From: an uncultured Gammaproteobacteria bacterium
GTDB taxonomy: Bacteria > Patescibacteriota > Microgenomatia > Daviesbacterales > UBA10151
Assembly: GCA_964522265.1 (NCBI GenBank)
Contig: CAZFVS010000028.1
Location: 1 to 6,209, forward strand
Direction of reading: 5' to 3'
Length of the DNA stretch: 6,209 nucleotides
The position numbers were made by a program, and so were the translations under genes. Every line of letters begins with the position of its first letter. Position 1 is the first letter of the stretch. The notes beneath the pieces are model-generated. The model was not told where the DNA came from. It ran no database searches and was given only the letters and a program-made list of their open reading frames with translations. Shown in pieces: positions 1-6,209 of this stretch.

Positions 1-519
1 TTTGTCTTTTTCCAGTTTTTCTTTCTGGGCAAGCAGATCAACAATCTCATCCGTAATGGAGATTATTACTTTCTGGTCCTCCCGGGTTGCGGCAAGACGG
101 TAAGAAAGCTCCCGGAAAATACTGGCTGAGGACTGCGAGGAAAATAAAACAGTGAGCGGGTTTGTATGATATGAGCGTATATAGTAGGAGCGTACCCTCT
201 GTTCTAGTAAAACCTGTTGTATTGCTATCTTCTCCATCCTGGCATTAAGATCCTTTTCTTTCTGGGAAATTTTATACGAAAGGCTGTAAAGAGAAGCCTG
301 TATCTGGGTAAGCTGGCGTTTTAAAGAATCGAGCTGGCCCTCTAGAGGTTTTGTGGCGCTAATGGATTGTTCCCTGGCTTTATTTAATTCAGTGATCTGT
401 TTTTGCAGGTCCTCAACTTCATCGGCATAGGCTGAAGTAAAAAGTAAAAAGGAAAAAGCGAGCAAAGCTCCTGCTGTTGCAGTAAAAAGCAGGATGACAG
501 GCAGAAAGAATTTTTTCAT
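1..519 (-). CDS. N-terminal part, truncated at the left edge, of a secreted or membrane-anchored coiled-coil protein. It resembles the PcsB/EnvC-type N-terminal region of a cell-wall hydrolase or hydrolase activator.
   Basis: This ORF is not in the supplied track because it is truncated. My hand translation of the minus strand from the ATG at 519-517 stays open to base 1 (173 codons): MKKFFLPVILLFTATAGALLAFSFLLFTSAYADEVEDLQKQITELNKAREQSISATKPLEGQLDSLKRQLTQIQASLYSLSYKISQKEKDLNARMEKIAIQQVLLEQRVRSYYIRSYHTNPLTVLFSSQSSASIFRELSYRLAATREDQKVIISITDEIVDLLAQKEKLEKDK. It has a hydrophobic signal or anchor followed by long Q/E/K/L-rich heptad-like stretches. It starts 9 nt after the stop of the upstream minus-strand gene. 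The catalytic domain, if any, lies outside the window, so the family call rests on pattern recognition only. Confidence 0.7.
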   Translation of the reverse strand, partial: MKKFFLPVILLFTATAGALLAFSFLLFTSAYADEVEDLQKQITELNKAREQSISATKPLEGQLDSLKRQLTQIQASLYSLSYKISQKEKDLNARMEKIAIQQVLLEQRVRSYYIRSYHTNPLTVLFSSQSSASIFRELSYRLAATREDQKVIISITDEIVDLLAQKEKLEKDK

Positions 520-528
520 TAACCTATT

Positions 529-1641
529 TTACCACTCAAAATCTCTTTTGGGGGAGGGGTTTAGGAAAAGCAACCAGGTGTTGAATATAAAAAGACCTAT
601 TCCAACAAACCAGGCTAAATTAAATTCCTTGGCAAATGGCAAAAGCAAAAGCACTAATACAGGCAGCCATTTTTTCTGGTTCATTAAAATAAAGATCGGC
701 AGAAGCAGGATCGCAGAATCATGCGTCAGGGAGTGAACAGAAAATAAAATCGCACACAAAGTTATGAAAACAAATATTCTGTCAAAACTTAAAAATTTCT
801 TTCTAAAAACAAAAAGGACAAAAAAAGTAAGGTATAAAAAAAAGTTTAAAACTGCTGATTTGTCTCCAAAACCAACCATCTTCAGGGCTGAATCAAGGGT
901 GTAGTAATGCCAGATCCTGCTTCCGTATATAGGGTTTTCTGTTGCTGCAATAAAATGCGGGTATTTAGCCAGGCCTGTAAAACCTGACACTAAAAAACTG
1001 ACTGCCAGGATAACCAGCGCGGATACTATCAAACCCATCAGAAAACTTTTACCTTTTGAAAGGAGAAAAAGAAACGGGGTTATTAAAAGATATTGGGGTT
1101 TAAAAAGAAGCAATCCTATTATTAATCCTGCAGAAAAATACCTTCCTTTTTTATAAAAAAGGTAGACCAGAAAAAAAACCAGTGACAAAAAAAGGGATAT
1201 CTGGCCTAAAATAAAGTTTTGTATAACCGGCCAATATAACAAAGGTATAAGAGAGAAAAATATTGGTTGTCTAATATTTATAAAAAGTTTTCTGGACAGA
1301 TACCCGATAAACAAAACCGCCCCCATGTTTAAAAAACCCAGTAATAAATAGGCATTACCAAAAGAAAATAGGGTAAACGGAATAAAAAACAGGGCTACAA
1401 AAGGAGGGTTGCGGTAAGGAAGAAGCTTGACAGAGAGGTTTTGTGAGAAGGGTTTCTGGTATTTGCCTTGGGTTTTTTCATCATATAAAAACCTTCCTTC
1501 GCCGTTTCTTACAATCAGAGCTCCTGTGTAAAAACTAATAAAATCTGTTCCTTGGACTCCATTTTTGGCAATAGCAAGCAAAACAAGTGTCAGGAATAAA
1601 ACCATTGTTAAAAAAACGCTCTTTAAAAAAAGATTGAACAT
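529..1641 (-). CDS. Polytopic integral membrane protein, probably a GT-C fold glycosyltransferase of the GT87/DUF2029 type (370 aa).
   Basis: The ORF is complete (ATG 1641-1639, TAA 531-529). The protein is hydrophobic throughout, with roughly 9-11 predicted helices. After the first helix comes the loop GTDFISFYTGALIVRNGEGRFLYD, which resembles the acidic first-loop signature of DUF2029/GT87 mannosyltransferase-like proteins. An AGGGA lies 9 nt upstream of the ATG. The family assignment comes from motif memory, not from a search. Confidence 0.6.
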   Translation of the reverse strand: MFNLFLKSVFLTMVLFLTLVLLAIAKNGVQGTDFISFYTGALIVRNGEGRFLYDEKTQGKYQKPFSQNLSVKLLPYRNPPFVALFFIPFTLFSFGNAYLLLGFLNMGAVLFIGYLSRKLFINIRQPIFFSLIPLLYWPVIQNFILGQISLFLSLVFFLVYLFYKKGRYFSAGLIIGLLLFKPQYLLITPFLFLLSKGKSFLMGLIVSALVILAVSFLVSGFTGLAKYPHFIAATENPIYGSRIWHYYTLDSALKMVGFGDKSAVLNFFLYLTFFVLFVFRKKFLSFDRIFVFITLCAILFSVHSLTHDSAILLLPIFILMNQKKWLPVLVLLLLPFAKEFNLAWFVGIGLFIFNTWLLFLNPSPKRDFEW

Positions 1642-1684
1642 TTACTTTTGTCCCTGATTTAATTAATCTCAAACTTATGGTCAA
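1634..1684. promoter_or_regulatory. Candidate back-to-back divergent promoter region, with each -35-like hexamer lying in the first codons of the opposite gene.
   Basis: On the plus strand, TTGAAC (1634-1639) is followed 18 nt later by TTTAAT (1658-1663), ahead of the ATG at 1677. On the minus strand, TTGACC (complement of 1679-1684) is followed 16 nt later by TTAAAT (complement of 1657-1662), ahead of the ATG at 1641. The palindrome TTAATTAA lies at 1659-1666. All matches are imperfect and the background is AT-rich. Confidence 0.3.
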
Positions 1685-3158
1685 GTATACAGTTTTAATC
1701 TTTGCAGTCTACACGTTATTTGTCATTAAAGGTGCAATCATGCTTGACCCTGATTTTGGGGAACATATCAGAATGGGTCAAATCATTCTCTCACAGGGTA
1801 TCCCTAAAACAGACCAATTCTCATATACTATGTCAAACTACCCGCATATTTACCATGAGTGGTTTATTGGGTCTGTTATTGCCTGGTTTTATCCATTTTT
1901 AGACATGTGGGGGTTGTCGGCAATTTTTGCCATTTTCCCAACCCTGGCTCTTGTCATTTCAATTCCCAAAAAACCTTTCAAGTTTTTTTTAGGCCCCTTG
2001 CTTTTATCAGCTTCCATCCTTTTAGTTTACTCAGGAATAAGACCACAGGTAATTTCCTGGTTTTTTCTGGCAATCCTTTTAAAAGTGATCTTTGATGAAA
2101 AATTATGGGAAAAAACCCGCTTTTTTGTACCTGTCCTTTTTCTTGTTTGGACAAACCTGCACGGCAGTTTTGGGTTGGGGATAATTATTTTATTTATTTC
2201 TTTTCTGATCCAATCCTGGGAACGGAAAAAAATTGATACGCTGGGTTTCCTGGTTTGTTTGATCAGTTTTATTGCAACTTTTATAAACCCTTACGGCAAA
2301 GGCTTATGGTATGAATTCTGGCAAACCTCATCTGACAGCTCTCTGCGGTGGTATATCCAGGAGTGGAAAATCATGCTTTTACAATTTGATTTTGCATATT
2401 TTTTCCTGGTAGCGCTTTCAACCAGCCTGATAATAAGATATAGGGAAAAATTCACCCTGCAGCAGGTGTTTTTATTTTTTATTTTTCTCTTTGCAGGTTT
2501 CTTAAGTGTCCGGAATATCCCGCTCTGGATCATAGTTTCACTGCCAATTACCATAACAGGGATCAAAAACTTTCATGAGGAAGCTTCTAAAAATAAATTT
2601 TCACTGATGAGATTTAATAGGGTTTACAAAATTTTCCTTCTTTCATCCGTACTTATATTCATAGGCCAGAGTTACCAGATCTTCAAACAGCTTAATCTTT
2701 ACTCAGAGGAACTTTCATACCCTAAAAAAGCTGTTGTTTTTTTAAAGACACAACAGTTTAACCATATTTTTAACCTGTATGACTGGGGTGGATATTTAGA
2801 CTGGAAAATGCCTGAAAAAAAGGTTTTTATAGACGGGAGGATGCCCAGCTGGAGGTGGAAAGCACCAAACAGCCTGGAAAGTGATTATATTTTCAAGGAA
2901 TACCTTAAAGTTTCAGGAGGACAGGATATCCAAAAGATTTTTGATAAATACAAAGTTGATATTGTCCTCTGGCCAACACAGGCTGAAACTGATCCAAAGA
3001 CTAAACCAAAAAACTGGTTTGAAAAAATTCAGTATGATCTGTTAAAAAAGATCCCTGAAGAAAATATCGGAGGCAAAACCTTTATTGAGCAGCTTAAAAG
3101 TATGGGCTGGAAAGAGGTTTATAAAGATGATGTGGCAGTAATTTATAAAAAACCATAA
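1677..3158 (+). CDS. Large polytopic membrane protein with a C-terminal soluble domain. It is a GT-C-like (ArnT/PMT-style) glycosyltransferase candidate (493 aa).
   Basis: The ORF runs from ATG 1677 to TAA 3156-3158. The first helix (YTVLIFAVYTLFVIKGAIML) is followed directly by an acidic loop, DPDFGEHIRMGQ, which is the DxD-type first-loop arrangement typical of GT-C enzymes. About 10 further helices follow, and then a hydrophilic tail of ~150 aa (YSEELSYPKKAV...KDDVAVIYKKP). An alternative start at ATG 1740 has an AAGGTG 5 nt upstream but would remove helix 1. The exact family is undetermined. Confidence 0.55.
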   Translation: MVKYTVLIFAVYTLFVIKGAIMLDPDFGEHIRMGQIILSQGIPKTDQFSYTMSNYPHIYHEWFIGSVIAWFYPFLDMWGLSAIFAIFPTLALVISIPKKPFKFFLGPLLLSASILLVYSGIRPQVISWFFLAILLKVIFDEKLWEKTRFFVPVLFLVWTNLHGSFGLGIIILFISFLIQSWERKKIDTLGFLVCLISFIATFINPYGKGLWYEFWQTSSDSSLRWYIQEWKIMLLQFDFAYFFLVALSTSLIIRYREKFTLQQVFLFFIFLFAGFLSVRNIPLWIIVSLPITITGIKNFHEEASKNKFSLMRFNRVYKIFLLSSVLIFIGQSYQIFKQLNLYSEELSYPKKAVVFLKTQQFNHIFNLYDWGGYLDWKMPEKKVFIDGRMPSWRWKAPNSLESDYIFKEYLKVSGGQDIQKIFDKYKVDIVLWPTQAETDPKTKPKNWFEKIQYDLLKKIPEENIGGKTFIEQLKSMGWKEVYKDDVAVIYKKP

Positions 3159-3166
3159 AAAACTGG

Positions 3167-3188
3167 CCGCTTTTCTAAAATTGTGCTA
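3167..3188 (+). repeat. Left copy of an imperfect 22-bp direct repeat flanking the DUF433/DUF5615 cassette.
   Basis: The left copy is ccgcttttctaaaattgtgcta (3167-3188) and the right copy is ccgcttttctaaagttgtacca (3811-3832). They match at 19 of 22 positions, and the first 13 nt are identical. Sequence outside the repeat is unrelated on both sides. Confidence 0.7.
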
Positions 3189-3192
3189 TAAT
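3184..3192 (+). promoter_or_regulatory. Extended -10 promoter element (TGcTATAAT) positioned for a leaderless DUF433 transcript.
   Basis: The sequence tgctataat at 3184-3192 contains a perfect TATAAT (3187-3192) preceded by TGn. The ATG at 3200 begins 8 nt after the hexamer, which is where transcription would be expected to start. There is no Shine-Dalgarno motif in between and no good -35 element (tggccg). Confidence 0.5.
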
Positions 3193-3199
3193 TAATATT

Positions 3200-3469
3200 A
3201 TGAAAAGTTTGATTACCCATAATCCAGAAATTTTAGGCGGCAAACCAATTATCGCTGGCACAAGGATGTCTGTTGAGGTTCTCTTAGAATTTTTAGCTGG
3301 TGGGATGGAAATCAAAGAAGTATTAAAAGAATTTCCATTTCTAACCAGAGAACAGATAGAAGCAGCTATCAGCTTTGCTGCAAAAAAGGTTGGAGCAAAA
3401 AAAAGTTATTCTTCTGATGAAAATTCTGCTCCCCAAGCAATTCCTCATGAGATTTCTCGCAGACGTTAA
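3200..3469 (+). CDS. DUF433 (COG2442-type) small DNA-binding protein, the putative antitoxin (89 aa).
   Basis: The segment HNPEILGGKPIIAGTRMSVEVLLEFLAGGMEIKEVLKEFPFLTREQIEAAISFAAK matches the DUF433 signature (P-x-I-x-x-GKP-x-I-x-GTR, then a helix-turn-helix-like G-x-x-x-x-E-[IV]-L-x-x-[YF]P-x-L-T-x-E-x-I-x-A-A). The gene lies immediately upstream of a DUF5615 gene, which is the canonical pairing. It has an unusual ~25-aa hydrophilic tail that overlaps the next gene. Confidence 0.85.
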   Translation: MKSLITHNPEILGGKPIIAGTRMSVEVLLEFLAGGMEIKEVLKEFPFLTREQIEAAISFAAKKVGAKKSYSSDENSAPQAIPHEISRRR

Positions 3470-3797
3470 TATCACCCAAACTTTAATTAAATTCCTGCGT
3501 TCAAAAAACCACAATGTATTAGATATTAAGGTATTTGATCAAAAAATTTCTGATGTAGAAATAATAAAACTTGCCTTAAAAGAAGGGAGAATAATATTAA
3601 CTCACGATAAAGACTTTGAAGTGTTAAGTAAGTACCCAAAATATCATGTTGGTATTATTAAAATTAGGTTGAAAATACAAAATTCGCCACATTTTTGTGA
3701 AAGGATAAACTTTTTGTTAAAGCAAAAAAGTGAAAAGGTGCTTCACGGTTCGTTAACAATACTCGAAGAAAACTCTAATGATTCTTATCCTTATTAA
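3447..3797 (+). CDS. DUF5615 (Mut7-C/PIN-like, COG4634-type) protein, the putative toxin nuclease (116 aa).
   Basis: From ATG 3447 the product reads MRFLADVNITQTLIKFLRSKNHNVLDIKVFDQKISDVEIIKLALKEGRIILTHDKDFEVL.... This fits the DUF5615 pattern (M-x-F-L-x-D-x-N near the N-terminus, S/D-D-x-E-I, then T-x-D-x-D-F), and the acidic residues are retained. The track ORF begins at 3375. ATG 3417 and ATG 3447 are both in frame, and I chose 3447 because family members begin at this motif. This start gives a 23-nt out-of-frame overlap with the DUF433 gene. Confidence 0.8.
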   Translation: MRFLADVNITQTLIKFLRSKNHNVLDIKVFDQKISDVEIIKLALKEGRIILTHDKDFEVLSKYPKYHVGIIKIRLKIQNSPHFCERINFLLKQKSEKVLHGSLTILEENSNDSYPY

Positions 3798-3810
3798 CCT
3801 TTCCAATTAC

Positions 3811-3832
3811 CCGCTTTTCTAAAGTTGTACCA
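3811..3832 (+). repeat. Right copy of the 22-bp direct repeat flanking the DUF433/DUF5615 cassette.
   Basis: This copy, ccgcttttctaaagttgtacca, lies 644 bp downstream of the left copy. Its 3' part supplies the -35-like TTGTAC of the candidate promoter for the pilin-like operon. Confidence 0.7.
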
Positions 3833-3853
3833 AAGCTTGCCCTGCTTTAAAAT
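3825..3853 (+). promoter_or_regulatory. Candidate sigma70-type promoter for the pilin-like operon.
   Basis: TTGTAC (3825-3830) is followed by a 17-nt spacer and then TAAAAT (3848-3853). This would give a leader of roughly 45 nt before the ATG at 3906. The exact 9-mer caaagcttg occurs at 3831-3839 and at 3864-3872, on either side of the -10 element. Confidence 0.4.
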
Positions 3854-3905
3854 GCATGGTAAGCAAAGCTTGATATTCACTGTCGTTCATATTAAGCTGG
3901 GGTTA

Positions 3906-5120
3906 ATGCCCAAAATACTCTCCATATTACTTATATTCATATTAACTTTTTCCTATTTAAAACCTGCAGCAGCTGATACTAACCAGTGTTCTACTACCAC
4001 AGTATATGAGGGACAAGCAATACCAGCATTAGTTCAAAACATACCTCCTATGAGTAAAGAGACACCAGACAACAAAAGATGGGTAGTATTTAAGATTATT
4101 GCAAGCAAAGACCCTAAAAATAGAGATATCAATACAAAATATAAGGTTATTTTCGACTATGGTGCACTTGGTACAGGAGAAACCTCTAGAGATAATTTAT
4201 CTGTAGATAACGAAGGAGCTCTTATAGACGATAAGGGAAACTATCCTGGAATCAAATATGATCCTGCAGCAGGAACTTCATTGTTTCAGCCTGGTAAACA
4301 TAATATAGATGTAGAAAGAAAAGGGGTTAGTGGAACATATTGCAAAGGTACATACGAAGTACTTAAAGATGCTTCAGGTGGTATTAAAGATTGCAAATTA
4401 GATTTTCAACCACCAAATCCAGATGAGAATAAAGAAATTACAGTAAGAGGAACAGTAGATCCACCCGGATCATATCAATTAAGGGTAGAATCCAAAAAAT
4501 CATTTAATCTTGAAGTTAATTCAGAAGGGAAAATACAACCTATTAATATAGGAAAATTTAACCCAAGGCAAAATCCATATGCAATAGCTTTACAAACTCA
4601 GCAACTAGATATGGCTTCTAGTGTTATTTCAGGTTTTCCTGTATTCAGTTTCCAGGATACTAATTGTATATATCAAGTACAAATCGCTATTAGTGGAGGC
4701 TCTGGAGTTGTCACCCAACCAATTCAACCAGGCCCGCCTAAACCTGGTTCAGGAGGTGGTAGAACGGGTGTGGATTGCTCTAAAGAACCATCAGGATGCT
4801 CAACTTCTGCAGGGGAATTTTGTGACCCTCCTGCTAATACTCAGATAAAAACTGCCATTGGGTGTATCCCTACTGAACCATCAGCGCTGGTTGGAGGGCT
4901 TTTGAGGTTTGCTGCAGGAGGAGCAGGAGGGATTGCACTTTTACTGATGATTTTTGGGGCTTTCAGAATGGTTACCTCTGCTGGTAACCCGGAAAGCTTA
5001 AAAGCCGGCCAGGAACAATTCACAGCAGCTGTTATCGGGCTTTTGTTTATTATTTTTGCAGTATTATTGCTACAGATTATCGGGGTTGATATACTGGGAT
5101 TGCCTGGGTTCACCAAATAA
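3906..5120 (+). CDS. Secreted multi-domain protein: signal peptide, ~280-aa Cys-containing extracellular region, Pro/Gly linker, and a C-terminal VirB2/TrbC-like pilin hairpin (404 aa).
   Basis: I set the start at ATG 3906, which gives MPKILSILLIFILTFSYLKPAAA|DT, a classic Sec signal with an AxA site and GGGG 4 nt upstream. The track's TTG 3825 start adds a non-signal-like extension. The mature region has 8 Cys and is rich in beta-strand-type residues. The linker QPIQPGPPKPGSGGGRTG spans about 4716-4769. The C-terminus, from about 4845, reads IKTAIGCIPTEPSALVGGLLRFAAGGAGGIALLLMIFGAFRMVTSAGNPESLKAGQEQFTAAVIGLLFIIFAVLLLQIIG. This is helix-loop-helix with the same loop motif as the three downstream genes. 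Confidence 0.8.
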   Translation: MPKILSILLIFILTFSYLKPAAADTNQCSTTTVYEGQAIPALVQNIPPMSKETPDNKRWVVFKIIASKDPKNRDINTKYKVIFDYGALGTGETSRDNLSVDNEGALIDDKGNYPGIKYDPAAGTSLFQPGKHNIDVERKGVSGTYCKGTYEVLKDASGGIKDCKLDFQPPNPDENKEITVRGTVDPPGSYQLRVESKKSFNLEVNSEGKIQPINIGKFNPRQNPYAIALQTQQLDMASSVISGFPVFSFQDTNCIYQVQIAISGGSGVVTQPIQPGPPKPGSGGGRTGVDCSKEPSGCSTSAGEFCDPPANTQIKTAIGCIPTEPSALVGGLLRFAAGGAGGIALLLMIFGAFRMVTSAGNPESLKAGQEQFTAAVIGLLFIIFAVLLLQIIGVDILGLPGFTK

Positions 5121-5126
5121 TCCAAT

Positions 5127-5483
5127 ATGAACAAGCTCGCTTTAAATATAGATGGCAAAAATATCCCCAATCTGCCTGAATTTGGCACGAATAGTGAGCT
5201 CAAAGAACTTACTTTAGGGGGAATAGCCAGCGTTGCATTAAACCTGATTTTTTATATTGCCGGGCTGCTGCTTGCTATCTGGCTGGTCTGGGGCGTGATG
5301 CAGTATATCTTTGCCGGAGGCAATAAAGAAGCATTGGCGAAAGCCCGCTCCAGGATCACTTATGCACTGGTTGGTTTTATTATAGTTGTCATGTCTTTTA
5401 CAATTAGCCAATATATTAAAGCCGCACTTACATTTAATCCAACTCGATTACTACCGCCAATCACAAATATATCCACGCCATGA
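5127..5483 (+). CDS. Small two-TM hairpin protein, VirB2/TrbC-like (CPR T4SS-pilin type) paralogue 1 (118 aa).
   Basis: The gene starts 6 nt after the preceding stop. TM1 is ASVALNLIFYIAGLLLAIWLVWGVMQYIF, the loop is AGGNKEALAKARSRIT (5313-5360), and TM2 is YALVGFIIVVMSFTISQYI. The stop TGA overlaps the next ATG (ATGA at 5480-5483). Confidence 0.8.
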   Translation: MNKLALNIDGKNIPNLPEFGTNSELKELTLGGIASVALNLIFYIAGLLLAIWLVWGVMQYIFAGGNKEALAKARSRITYALVGFIIVVMSFTISQYIKAALTFNPTRLLPPITNISTP

Positions 5484-5791
5484 TAAGCAAAGCCTATGCT
5501 GTTGAATTAAACAAAGAGTATGGTTTCGGATGGGTAAGCAGTGCCGGTTATTTTCTTGGACTATATTTAGTCCCTATTGTTTTTGAAATTGCCGGGATAG
5601 CCGTACTTTTTTATACAGTTTTTGCGGCGATAAAATATATGACATCAGGAGGCGATAAAGAAGCAGTGGCATCAGCCCGCGCTATGATTACCCATTCAAT
5701 AATAGGCTTTCTTTTACTGATATTTGTCTTTCTGTTTCTGCAATATATATTCCCGGCAATCGGGCTGGAAGGGTTTGCTATAATCAGATAA
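5480..5791 (+). CDS. Small two-TM hairpin protein, VirB2/TrbC-like pilin-type paralogue 2 (103 aa).
   Basis: There is a 4-nt ATGA overlap with paralogue 1. TM1 is YFLGLYLVPIVFEIAGIAVLFYTVFAAIKYM, the loop is SGGDKEAVASARAMIT (5645-5692), and TM2 is HSIIGFLLLIFVFLFLQYIF. Confidence 0.8.
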   Translation: MISKAYAVELNKEYGFGWVSSAGYFLGLYLVPIVFEIAGIAVLFYTVFAAIKYMTSGGDKEAVASARAMITHSIIGFLLLIFVFLFLQYIFPAIGLEGFAIIR

Positions 5792-5793
5792 AT

Positions 5794-6114
5794 ATGAAAC
5801 TTTTAGCCCTTTCGTTTGACGAGGTTATAGGAAAAATCACTCCTCCTGTCCCCATCCGTAATATCGGAGAGGGCGGGGCAGGCATAAACAAGTTCCTTTC
5901 TAATATTTTAAACATCATCTATGTTTTCGGGTCAATTATTTTCCTTTTTATGATAGTGGTCAGTGCTGTCCAATGGATTATCTCAGGCGGTGATAAAGAA
6001 GCGGTCCAAAAAGCCCGTTCAAGAATCACCAGTGCCATCATCGGGCTTATTCTTTTGGCCCTAGCCAGGTTTATAGCAACACTGGTTGGTTCAATCACGG
6101 GTTTTAATATTTGA
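5794..6114 (+). CDS. Small two-TM hairpin protein, VirB2/TrbC-like pilin-type paralogue 3 (106 aa).
   Basis: The gene starts 2 nt after the preceding stop. TM1 is FLSNILNIIYVFGSIIFLFMIVVSAVQWII, the loop is SGGDKEAVQKARSRIT (5983-6030), and TM2 is SAIIGLILLALARFIATLVG. Confidence 0.8.
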   Translation: MKLLALSFDEVIGKITPPVPIRNIGEGGAGINKFLSNILNIIYVFGSIIFLFMIVVSAVQWIISGGDKEAVQKARSRITSAIIGLILLALARFIATLVGSITGFNI

Positions 6115-6117
6115 TAC

Positions 6118-6147
6118 TTGACAAGCTTTTTGTAATCTGCATATGAT
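6118..6147 (+). promoter_or_regulatory. Candidate sigma70-type promoter immediately downstream of the pilin-like array.
   Basis: TTGACA (6118-6123, a perfect -35) is followed by an 18-nt spacer and then TATGAT (6142-6147, 5/6 match to the -10 consensus). The predicted start point, around 6153-6155, coincides with the ATG ATG at 6152-6157. Confidence 0.45.
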
Positions 6148-6151
6148 AATA

Positions 6152-6209
6152 ATGATGCGGTCCAAAATTATTAGTGCATTAACTATCGGAATTGCTGTTT
6201 TACTGAATC
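6152..6209 (+). CDS. 5' end of an ORF with a hydrophobic N-terminus (signal peptide or TM helix). It is truncated at the right edge and its function is unknown.
   Basis: My hand translation gives atg atg cgg tcc aaa att att agt gca tta act atc gga att gct gtt tta ctg aat = MMRSKIISALTIGIAVLLN, open to the window edge. In-frame ATGs also occur at 6143 and 6155. Only 19 codons are visible, so the coding call is tentative. Confidence 0.35.
   Translation, partial: MMRSKIISALTIGIAVLLN

Follow-up and report, generated by a model that had tools for sequence, protein, structure and literature searches.

A candidate bimodular leader pilin with a predicted Ig-like ectodomain at the head of a PF18895 array in Patescibacteria

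The 6,209-nucleotide stretch of DNA considered here (contig CAZFVS010000028.1, positions 1 to 6,209; hereafter the window) carries on its plus strand a tandem array of genes for small pilin-like proteins of the family PF18895, headed by a longer gene, termed here the leader, whose product places a large N-terminal region in front of a pilin-like hairpin. The GC content varies between 31 and 44% across the window, and the gene content resembles that of the Candidate Phyla Radiation (CPR). The whole leader gene occupies positions 3906-5120, stop codon included, and encodes 404 amino acids arranged as a signal peptide, an ectodomain, a hinge, a cysteine collar and a terminal hairpin; the identical protein is present in NCBI (P0001). 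Three complete small pilin genes follow directly 3' on the same strand, in agreement with the initial annotation of this DNA, which had taken the leader for the first gene of an array: small pilin 1 (5127-5483, 118 amino acids), small pilin 2 (5480-5791, 103 amino acids) and small pilin 3 (5794-6114, 106 amino acids). Their matches to PF18895 score 36.1 bits (above the gathering score), 25.9 bits and 43.8 bits, respectively, and the spacings from the leader through pilins 1 and 2 to pilin 3 are 6, -4 and 2 nucleotides, the negative value being a 4-nucleotide overlap. In each of these three proteins the N-terminal tail is short and hydrophilic, and neither cysteines nor a collar motif were found in them.

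The reading frame of the leader begins with ATG at 3906 and ends with TAA at 5118-5120. A mechanical call of the open reading frame (ORF) starts at TTG 3825; the Met at 3906 is preferred because the N-termini (MSK, MPK, MRL and the like) of 15 of 16 aligned full-length homologues coincide with it, and this start renders the hydrophobic segment N-terminal. A Sec-type signal peptide is predicted for residues 1-23 (3906-3974, plus strand) from hydropathy and the A-x-A rule: the sequence MPKILSILLIFILTFSYLKPAAA, followed by DT, has a basic n-region, a hydrophobic core and A-A-A at -3 to -1, with Kyte-Doolittle values of at least 1.6 over residues 1-23 and an AlphaFold2 (AF2) helix at residues 3-17. 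The cleavage site between AAA and DT is a rule-based call. The Sec signal that the initial annotation had read is therefore present and, as judged from the alignment of homologue starts, lies at the true N-terminus; it has no lipobox, and the first cysteine follows at +5 after AAA. A search of 5.8 billion proteins found 321 homologues, of which 120 were listed and are the basis of the homologue counts given here; a comparable N-terminus is present in 105 of them, and most of the other 15 look like truncated or mis-started calls. The presence of a cleavable signal in the leader may be explained by the large N-terminal domain that must cross the membrane, the small pilins having only their hydrophilic tails. 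The predicted mature protein comprises 381 amino acids (24-404) and is of ~40 kDa.

The region behind the signal peptide had been described as an extracellular stretch of about 280 residues, rich in beta-strand-type residues and belonging to no named family. Its beta-rich character is borne out by AF2, which predicts two well-folded all-beta domains at residues ~24-157 and 158-269, with scores in the predicted local distance difference test (pLDDT) mostly of 85-97, rather than a disordered or non-globular segment. The length needs adjustment: the folded ectodomain itself spans ~245 residues (24-269), and the entire part in front of the hairpin, with hinge and collar included, reaches ~300. Domain 1 (residues 24-157; 3975-4376, plus strand) is modelled as a membrane-distal beta-sandwich and, when predicted alone from a shallow alignment of nine sequences, has a pLDDT of 84.7 and a predicted template modelling score (pTM) of 0.80. 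Domain 2 (residues 158-269; 4377-4712, plus strand) is a second immunoglobulin (Ig)-like beta-sandwich in the models, with a pLDDT of 82-97 over residues 161-270; the alignment behind the whole-protein model (mean pLDDT 81) was likewise shallow, with 29 sequences. In Foldseek comparisons with the PDB, the whole model retrieved tandem Ig-like structures at E ~1e-5 and ~10% identity, among them PECAM-1 IgL1-2, the Bap C region, KIR2DL2, complement macroglobulin (MG) domains and SiiE, and domain 1 alone retrieved generic sandwiches with template modelling (TM) scores of at most 0.6 and none at E<=1e-3. Searches of Pfam, NCBIfam and PDB sequences gave no match from which the ectodomain could be named, and the N-terminal regions of 103 other family members yielded just two fn3 matches, so that the absence of a named family holds, with generic Ig-like or MG-like folds as the only likeness.

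All eight cysteines fall within the mature part, at positions 28, 146, 163, 254, 291, 298, 306 and 320, as the initial annotation had counted them; four belong to the ectodomain and four to the segments VDCSKEPSGCSTSAGEFCDPP (289-309) and TAIGCIPTEP (316-325). C28 and C146 sit on the first and last strands of domain 1; in domain 2, C163 lies on the first strand and C254 on a late one. None of these four residues varies among 17 homologues, and among 29 they are almost always conserved. From this co-conservation and the modelled domain membership, one stapling disulfide per domain (C28/C146 and C163/C254) can reasonably be inferred, and two more would be predicted within the collar. Between the ectodomain and the collar lies the Pro/Gly hinge that had been proposed at this place (residues 270-290; 4713-4775, plus strand), which is predicted to be disordered: 11 of its 21 residues are Pro or Gly, its sequence QPIQPGPPKPGSGGGRTG at 271-288 is 50% Pro/Gly, and most of the linker 280-301 is modelled by AF2 as disordered with a pLDDT below 50.

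The four-cysteine collar (C291, C298, C306 and C320; residues 291-325; 4776-4880, plus strand) ends in TAIGCIPTEP (4851-4880) and contains a small beta-hairpin at 313-322 in the AF2 model. Its motif T[AS]x[G]C[IV][PH]TxP occurs in 118 of the 120 listed homologues at 86-94 (mode 89) residues before the C-terminus, most motif-bearing homologues have C-x(2-8)-C-[ST][ST][AG][AG]G-x-C upstream of it, and in related loci it is confined to the large first gene. The near invariance of this motif and its fixed distance from the C-terminus are also what a pro-pilin might exhibit, the alternative raised in the initial annotation: cleavage at TAIGC[IV][PH]TxP would yield a pilin of ordinary length (~85-89 amino acids), comparable to the hairpin of a small pilin, and the ectodomain would be secreted or kept as a protein of its own. 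Classical VirB2, TrbC and TraA pilins have long N-terminal leaders and undergo further processing, which counts for this possibility. However, the motif cysteine and the three upstream cysteines are just as compatible with a collar held by disulfides. Neither signal peptidase I nor II would be expected to act at the motif, which has no hydrophobic segment in front of it, and a screen of the conserved neighbourhood, covering the Pfam-annotated neighbours and four query proteins, revealed no protease gene. The resemblance of AIGC to a lipobox is superficial; an internal lipobox was considered at this position and rejected, since Cys 320 is preceded by the hydrophilic, charged ANTQIK and by no hydrophobic stretch. 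We regard the processing of the leader to a small pilin as unlikely.

The C-terminal module (residues 326-404; 4881-5117, plus strand) is a VirB2-like helical hairpin ending in a conserved PGF, with AF2 helices at 325-357 and 362-396 and hydropathy segments at 328-360 and 368-403. The helices are joined through a short polar loop, and both the TSxG[ND]xE turn in this loop and the motifs GAFxMxTSAGNPE...IGLLF are common to the leader and the small pilins. PF18895 is matched at residues 336-392 (model positions 15-71 of 71) with an E-value of 5.2e-5 and 23.7 bits, the gathering score being 26.6. This sub-threshold score is backed by a profile-profile comparison in which hhalign aligned leader hairpins with small-pilin hairpins over 67 columns with a probability of 99% and an E-value of 2.2e-18; the small-pilin profile includes the three paralogues of the window, two of which exceed the gathering threshold. 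In addition, 101 of the 103 other family members match PF18895 at E<=1e-3, the best at 3.3e-11. A Pfam scan of the query gave no match to PF04956, a family that some Saccharibacterial PF18895 pilins do match.

The combination of an N-terminal passenger with the hairpin is a property of the protein class. In all 120 listed homologues the hairpin module stands at the extreme C-terminus behind 118-560 amino acids, and full-length homologues are 29-42% identical to the query, with the nearest named relatives in Candidatus Daviesbacteria; some of the database entries are simply named 'pilin'. Species representatives of GTDB (one genome per species) contain 230 encoding stretches, nearly all from Daviesbacteria, Microgenomates or unclassified Patescibacteria. 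Many records of related loci, including L007, L010-L012, L014 and L020-L023, are titled 'uncultured Gammaproteobacteria bacterium' (third-party annotation assemblies); such titles look like placeholders or wrong taxonomy, because the gene content indicates Patescibacteria. The initial annotation had named a frameshift or assembly fusion of two normally separate genes as the outcome that would undo its claim. A fusion of a secreted-protein gene with a small pilin gene through frameshift, mis-assembly or gene calling is, however, hard to reconcile with the same continuous architecture in hundreds of independent assemblies (NCBI, JGI, ENA and Logan), or with the fact that the junction, i.e. the collar, is the most diagnostic conserved element. 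A profile built from the ectodomain alone found 144 proteins among 1.84 billion representatives, with essentially no stand-alone copies: 112 of the 144 end in the hairpin, and the exceptions among the best 50 are either incomplete sequences that break off in the collar or motif, or giant Ig-repeat proteins that match in part. No homologues with the ectodomain and hairpin as separate adjacent genes were seen; an artefact is therefore rejected as exceedingly improbable.

The position of the leader within its array is equally regular. A scan with a hidden Markov model (HMM) of the hairpin over the ORFs in all six frames of every retrieved locus gave 64 non-redundant loci that carry a motif-bearing gene, one and only one per locus. 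In 62 of the 64 this gene heads the hairpin genes of its same-strand array, a small pilin lies within 1 kb 3' of it in 62 of the 64, and most often (37 of 64 loci) the small pilins number five in a contiguous row. Further 3', at 1.6-8 kb from the leader, a protein of 510-640 amino acids with a weak match to TrbL/VirB6 (E 0.0025, below threshold) is encoded in 44 of 66 loci, followed by PrgI (VirB3-like) and TraC-like (VirB4-like) genes where the flanks extend that far. The window is accordingly the 5' end of a Patescibacterial type IV secretion system (T4SS) locus with its core genes beyond the window end. Since related arrays typically carry five small pilins, a putative further ORF at 6152-6209 (plus strand; translation MMRSKIISALTIGIAVLLN...), which runs off the window, is probably the next array member. 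Directly after small pilin 3, at 6118-6147, stands the best promoter-like sequence of the region, TTGACA-18-TATGAT with 11 of 12 matches, suggesting that the array has an internal promoter and extends by one gene or more past the window end.

Sequence conservation is distributed unevenly along the leader. Among 17 full-length homologues the mean pairwise identity is 61% in the hairpin, 42% in the collar, 17-18% in the two ectodomain domains and 12% in the hinge; overall, mean pairwise identities are 61-62% for the hairpin, 17-27% for the ectodomain and 12-18% for the hinge, the least conserved region of the protein, and similarity to the query ectodomain is detectable by BLAST in only 14 of the 120 listed homologues. 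In P0010 the hairpin is 88% identical to that of the query, and the 485-amino-acid N-terminal region has no significant similarity, a pattern that indicates an exchange of modules. The pattern that had been anticipated for a host-contact surface, namely a hypervariable N-terminal region on a conserved hairpin, is thus observed across the homologues. Between species, leader hairpins are 58.6% identical and the best-matching small pilins 47.5%, and within one array the leader and the small pilins share 26% identity; on account of this conservation between species and distance from co-encoded pilins, the leader hairpins form a conserved subfamily of their own.

A finer view of these changes comes from one near-identical strain pair of the same study, L085:349-1509 and L086:513-1688 (P0003/P0004), as pairs of species representatives, being at most 60% identical, are unsuited to the ratio of nonsynonymous to synonymous substitution rates (dN/dS). 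Over the upstream flank and through most of domain 2, the hinge and the collar, the two strains are 85-98% identical in nucleotides; within domain 1 the figure falls to 33-75%. The hairpin stands at ~82-87%, almost every substitution there being synonymous, and the neighbouring small pilin (67-88%) has diverged further than the upstream flank. At the protein level domain 1 is 55.6% identical and the remainder 90-97%. The dS values vary from 0.05 to more than 1.5 along the leader gene, which bears the signature of recombination mosaicism, and dN/dS is 0.04 in the hairpin and 0.12-0.25 in the ectodomain. Because of these ratios and the conserved cysteine pairs, the ectodomain appears functional and constrained, with its distal half exchanged or fast-diverging, in this single pair with dS saturated in domain 1. 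A folded two-domain module with conserved cysteine pairs that is under purifying selection (dN/dS of 0.12-0.25) does not resemble a leader sequence, which argues further against a pro-pilin.

The reading that we favour, with roughly even confidence, is that the leader is a bimodular minor pilin displaying an adhesin on a Patescibacterial T4SS that resembles the mating-pair-formation (MPF) class FATA. The large region stands, as had been pointed out initially, where VirB2-type pilins carry just a leader, and consists of a signal and a folded ectodomain before the hairpin. The Sec pathway would export the N-terminal part and signal peptidase I would cut after AAA; helix 1 of the hairpin would then serve as a stop-transfer segment and helix 2 would re-insert, leaving both termini outside and the loop inside. 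Mature VirB2-type pilins such as VirB2 and TraA have the same N-out/C-out, loop-in topology, and in conjugative pili of known structure both termini are exposed on the outer face and the loop is turned to the lumen, so that an N-terminal passenger on a flexible linker could be displayed. The hairpin would join whatever polymer is built by the small pilins on the T4SS, in a single copy or only rarely, and would most plausibly be incorporated ahead of the other subunits and hence be distal; steric crowding would favour a rare or terminal position, in line with the single copy per array. The hinge would let the Ig-like module project outward as a host-contact (adhesin or receptor-binding) element, and host specificity would be adjusted through divergence and exchange of the distal module, the anchor keeping its fit to the machine. 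We infer incorporation into the filament, tip position and binding from sequence, and the evidence for the proposal as a whole is computational, drawn from sequences and models.

Several observations weigh against this proposal. The Pfam score of the query is just below the gathering threshold, and the hairpin profile retrieved no solved VirB2, TraA or TrwL pilin from all PDB sequences, its only matches being two designed proteins (E 0.085 and 0.38). VirB4, VirB6 and VirB3 genes are all absent from the window, the link to a T4SS coming from related loci. The structure models derive from shallow alignments of 29 and 9 sequences, with a whole-protein pTM of 0.52; an Ig-like fold is generic and by itself no indication of binding; and the selection analysis concerns one strain pair, with dS saturated in domain 1. 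The net charge of the interhelix loop is -0.30 (neutral to acidic) in the leader class and +0.75 (basic) in the small pilins, which could mean that the leader does not occupy an equivalent position in the lattice. Lastly, no PF18895 pilus has been demonstrated in any Patescibacterium, and reviews refer to it as a possibility (PMC12857230).

The last two points lead to a serious rival, less easily set aside than a cleaved pro-pilin, in which the leader is a membrane-anchored surface protein. The hairpin would then be a two-helix anchor, perhaps bound to the T4SS or to pilins pooled in the membrane, and the Ig-like module would act at the surface in adhesion, envelope scaffolding or spacing and never enter a filament. 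The filament itself being undemonstrated (PMC12857230), this reading is also slightly favoured by the distinct and less basic loop and by the 26% identity to the co-encoded small pilins; the high conservation of these two parts, hairpin and collar, might stem from a constant partner protein in the membrane instead of lattice packing, and tandem Ig-like domains are typical of cell-surface proteins generally. On the other hand, the strict rule of one leader per array, its first position and its tight spacing with the small pilins point to the same assembly, and a simple anchor would not need the motifs GAFxMxTSAGNPE...IGLLF that are shared with the pilins. Moreover, a hinge of ~20 residues (30-45 with the collar) would seem short for clearing the cell wall and adequate on a filament. 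Anchoring in the membrane is a possible explanation which we nevertheless consider less likely than a minor pilin.

The minor-pilin reading can be carried further. The first position of the gene, a hairpin better conserved than those of its paralogues and the rigid, conserved collar beside the helix would suit a subunit bound in a constant way to the machine or to the initial layer of pilins, as expected of an initiator or cap. In its strongest form, which we put forward only tentatively, this reading would make the leader a VirB2-type pilin of a new sort, the first to carry its own receptor-binding module. As an initiator or cap, it would use its conserved hairpin and cysteine collar to nucleate, on a monoderm T4SS, a heteropolymeric pilus made of about five different small pilins; the exchangeable distal Ig-like domain would decide to which host cells the episymbiont can adhere and on which it can feed, and the protein would be both the missing adhesin or VirB5 equivalent and a marker of host range. 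Solved conjugative pili are five-start helical assemblies, and it is pure speculation that five distinct small-pilin paralogues map onto a five-fold layer.

The leader is similar to the classical pilins VirB2, TrbC and TraA, in which the signal is removed on export, in its hydrophobic two-helix hairpin of ~70-80 amino acids, its predicted N-terminal signal, its predicted N-out/C-out topology and its gene within a T4SS cluster. It differs in size, the mature classical subunit being small (~65-80 amino acids, ~7-8 kDa) and that of the leader predicted at 381 amino acids and ~40 kDa. VirB5 minor pilins are helical bundles with an appendage, whereas the leader is predicted to be all-beta with a VirB2-like hairpin in addition, and no match to a VirB5/TraC family domain was found in it in Pfam or NCBIfam. 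The proposed role as a low-copy subunit in contact with the target is alike, VirB5 being located at the pilus tip (PMC12857230). In contrast to the classical Gram-negative pilins, the leader belongs to a monoderm lineage with an MPF-FATA-like machine (PMC12102498).

The same logic of a binding and a polymerisation module in one polypeptide is found in more distant systems, where one special subunit with a variable binding module likewise stands beside several plain ones. FimH and PapG are two-domain adhesins of chaperone-usher pili, and PilB and PilC of Streptococcus sanguinis are modular type IV pilins; their polymerisation modules and machines are unrelated to those of the leader, in which the extra module is N-terminal. 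The leader has no class III (prepilin peptidase) signal and, unlike modular type IV pilins, combines a Sec-type A-A-A site with a C-terminal hydrophobic module. A Foldseek match of domain 1 to the lectin domain of FmlH was insignificant (E 0.06, probability 0.23). Another Ig-like-domain surface protein associated with T4SS of the MPF-FATA type is PrgB, which is LPXTG/sortase-anchored and much larger; its Ig-like domains (8beg) match domain 1 weakly (E 0.08, probability 0.28). Homologues of PrgB were not found in Patescibacteria, and a survey that detected no adhesins of this kind (PMC12102498) thereby leaves the role of an adhesin vacant for candidates.

Arrays of PF18895 genes have been reported in Patescibacteria before. 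The T4SS locus of the Saccharibacterium Southlakia epibionticum includes a six-gene array that is essential for epibiotic growth (Wang et al. 2023, PMC10633639), and the survey mentioned above (Quinonero-Coronel et al. 2025) recorded 441 arrays of 2-11 genes, which were most abundant in Microgenomatia and Saccharimonadia (PMC12102498). These arrays share with the window the hairpin family and the phylum, and with its related loci the tandem layout by VirB6-, VirB3- and VirB4-like genes (PMC10633639, PMC12102498). In contrast to the published PF18895 pilins, the leader is ~400 amino acids long and has a Sec signal, a folded ectodomain and a cysteine collar absent from small pilins; compared with the published arrays, it is present in one copy, stands first and has a more conserved hairpin than the small pilins have. 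A pilin subclass with a large N-terminal domain is not mentioned in the text of either study (PMC10633639, PMC12102498): the supplement on S. epibionticum contains only proteins with the pilin domain at residues ~38-180 (PMC10633639), and the survey discusses fusion in its text for VirB3-VirB4 only and lists 'VirB2' in its table without lengths, so that the leader class was probably counted simply as 'VirB2' under its HMM criteria (PMC12102498). No description of a large modular leader pilin was found in the searchable literature, outside which most subscription journals fall. While the PF18895 family and its arrays are already known, the single-copy, first-in-array bimodular subclass with its collar signature appears undescribed.

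Weak matches of two small pilins of the window (5127-5483 and 5794-6114; E 6.5e-6 and 5.4e-4, below the cut-off) were also noted to NF045849 of NCBIfam, the 'Mbov_0395 family pilin-like conjugal transfer protein' of integrative and conjugative elements of Mycoplasma. They hint that PF18895-type hairpins may be related to the pilin-like proteins of Mollicutes MPF-FATA elements, a relationship that bears on the origin of Patescibacterial pilins.

On the 5' side of the leader, the related loci and the window differ. In 50 of 66 loci a SpoIID-domain protein of 570-600 amino acids, from a peptidoglycan-remodelling family, is encoded just 5' of the leader (for instance L001:7030-8757, L003:8197-9906 and L005:6252-8066) and is divergent in the three loci that were looked at closely. 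It may open the cell wall in the manner of VirB1, a partner that the published survey reported missing in most Patescibacterial T4SS loci. The window has no SpoIID gene upstream of the leader and instead has membrane protein genes and a toxin-antitoxin-like pair there. The pair comprises a DUF433 protein of 89 amino acids and a DUF5615/PIN-like protein (3200-3797, plus strand) and ends 108 nucleotides before the leader gene; it is probably a toxin-antitoxin module inserted immediately 5' of the pilin array. Because the two ORFs as listed overlap by 95 nucleotides, the DUF5615/PIN-like protein probably starts at a later Met. PIN/Phd and ParE/RelB pairs likewise flank the array in L001 and L003. 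Farther upstream, a GT87-family membrane glycosyltransferase (529-1641, minus strand) is divergently paired with a polytopic membrane protein of 493 amino acids (1677-3158, plus strand) that has no Pfam or NCBIfam match; the two may be an envelope glycosylation pair.

About one third of the related loci contain, within roughly 60 nucleotides 3' of the leader and before the small pilins, a gene for a four-helix-bundle protein of ~120 amino acids (L003:11492-11848; also L009, L061, L058, L051, L065, L029, L057, L043, L038, L060, L055, L035, L018, L033, L030, L049, L054, L053 and L024). This protein matches TIGR02436 and PF05635 (23S rRNA-intervening sequence protein), and it scores 33 bits against the Avd model of diversity-generating retroelements, with a cut-off of 80. 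Direct repeats of at least 40 nucleotides were found neither in the window nor touching the leader gene in L003 or L061. A diversity-generating retroelement was rejected for the window, given the lack of template/variable repeats in these three sequences and of an Avd-like gene; reverse transcriptase was not searched for. Elsewhere in L003, an 88-nucleotide direct repeat with 85% identity (12495-12582 and 14392-14479) lies over the 5' ends both of a small pilin gene and of the VirB6-like gene, and the two therefore share a near-identical N-terminal, signal-like coding segment.

The role of the T4SS and the mode of host recognition are open questions in Patescibacteria (PMC10633639, PMC11665869, PMC12857230), even though the T4SS with its pilin array is essential for the only genetically tractable member of the phylum (PMC10633639) and, in other Patescibacteria, proteins with T4SS pilin domains are among the most highly expressed surface proteins of unknown function (PMC10936435). 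If it is only anchored in the membrane, the leader would provide a useful annotation for an uncharacterised class of CPR proteins (230 stretches in genomes of species representatives) and would be much less surprising. As a subclass with a single copy, first position, conserved anchor and fast-evolving, exchangeable ectodomain, it represents a concrete candidate for the host-contact element, and is easily found by the signature TAIGC[IV][PH]TxP ~89 amino acids from the C-terminus. Through the leader it becomes testable whether these pilins form filaments, whether host range follows the alleles of the distal domain, and whether a pilus lattice can carry a 30-kDa passenger.

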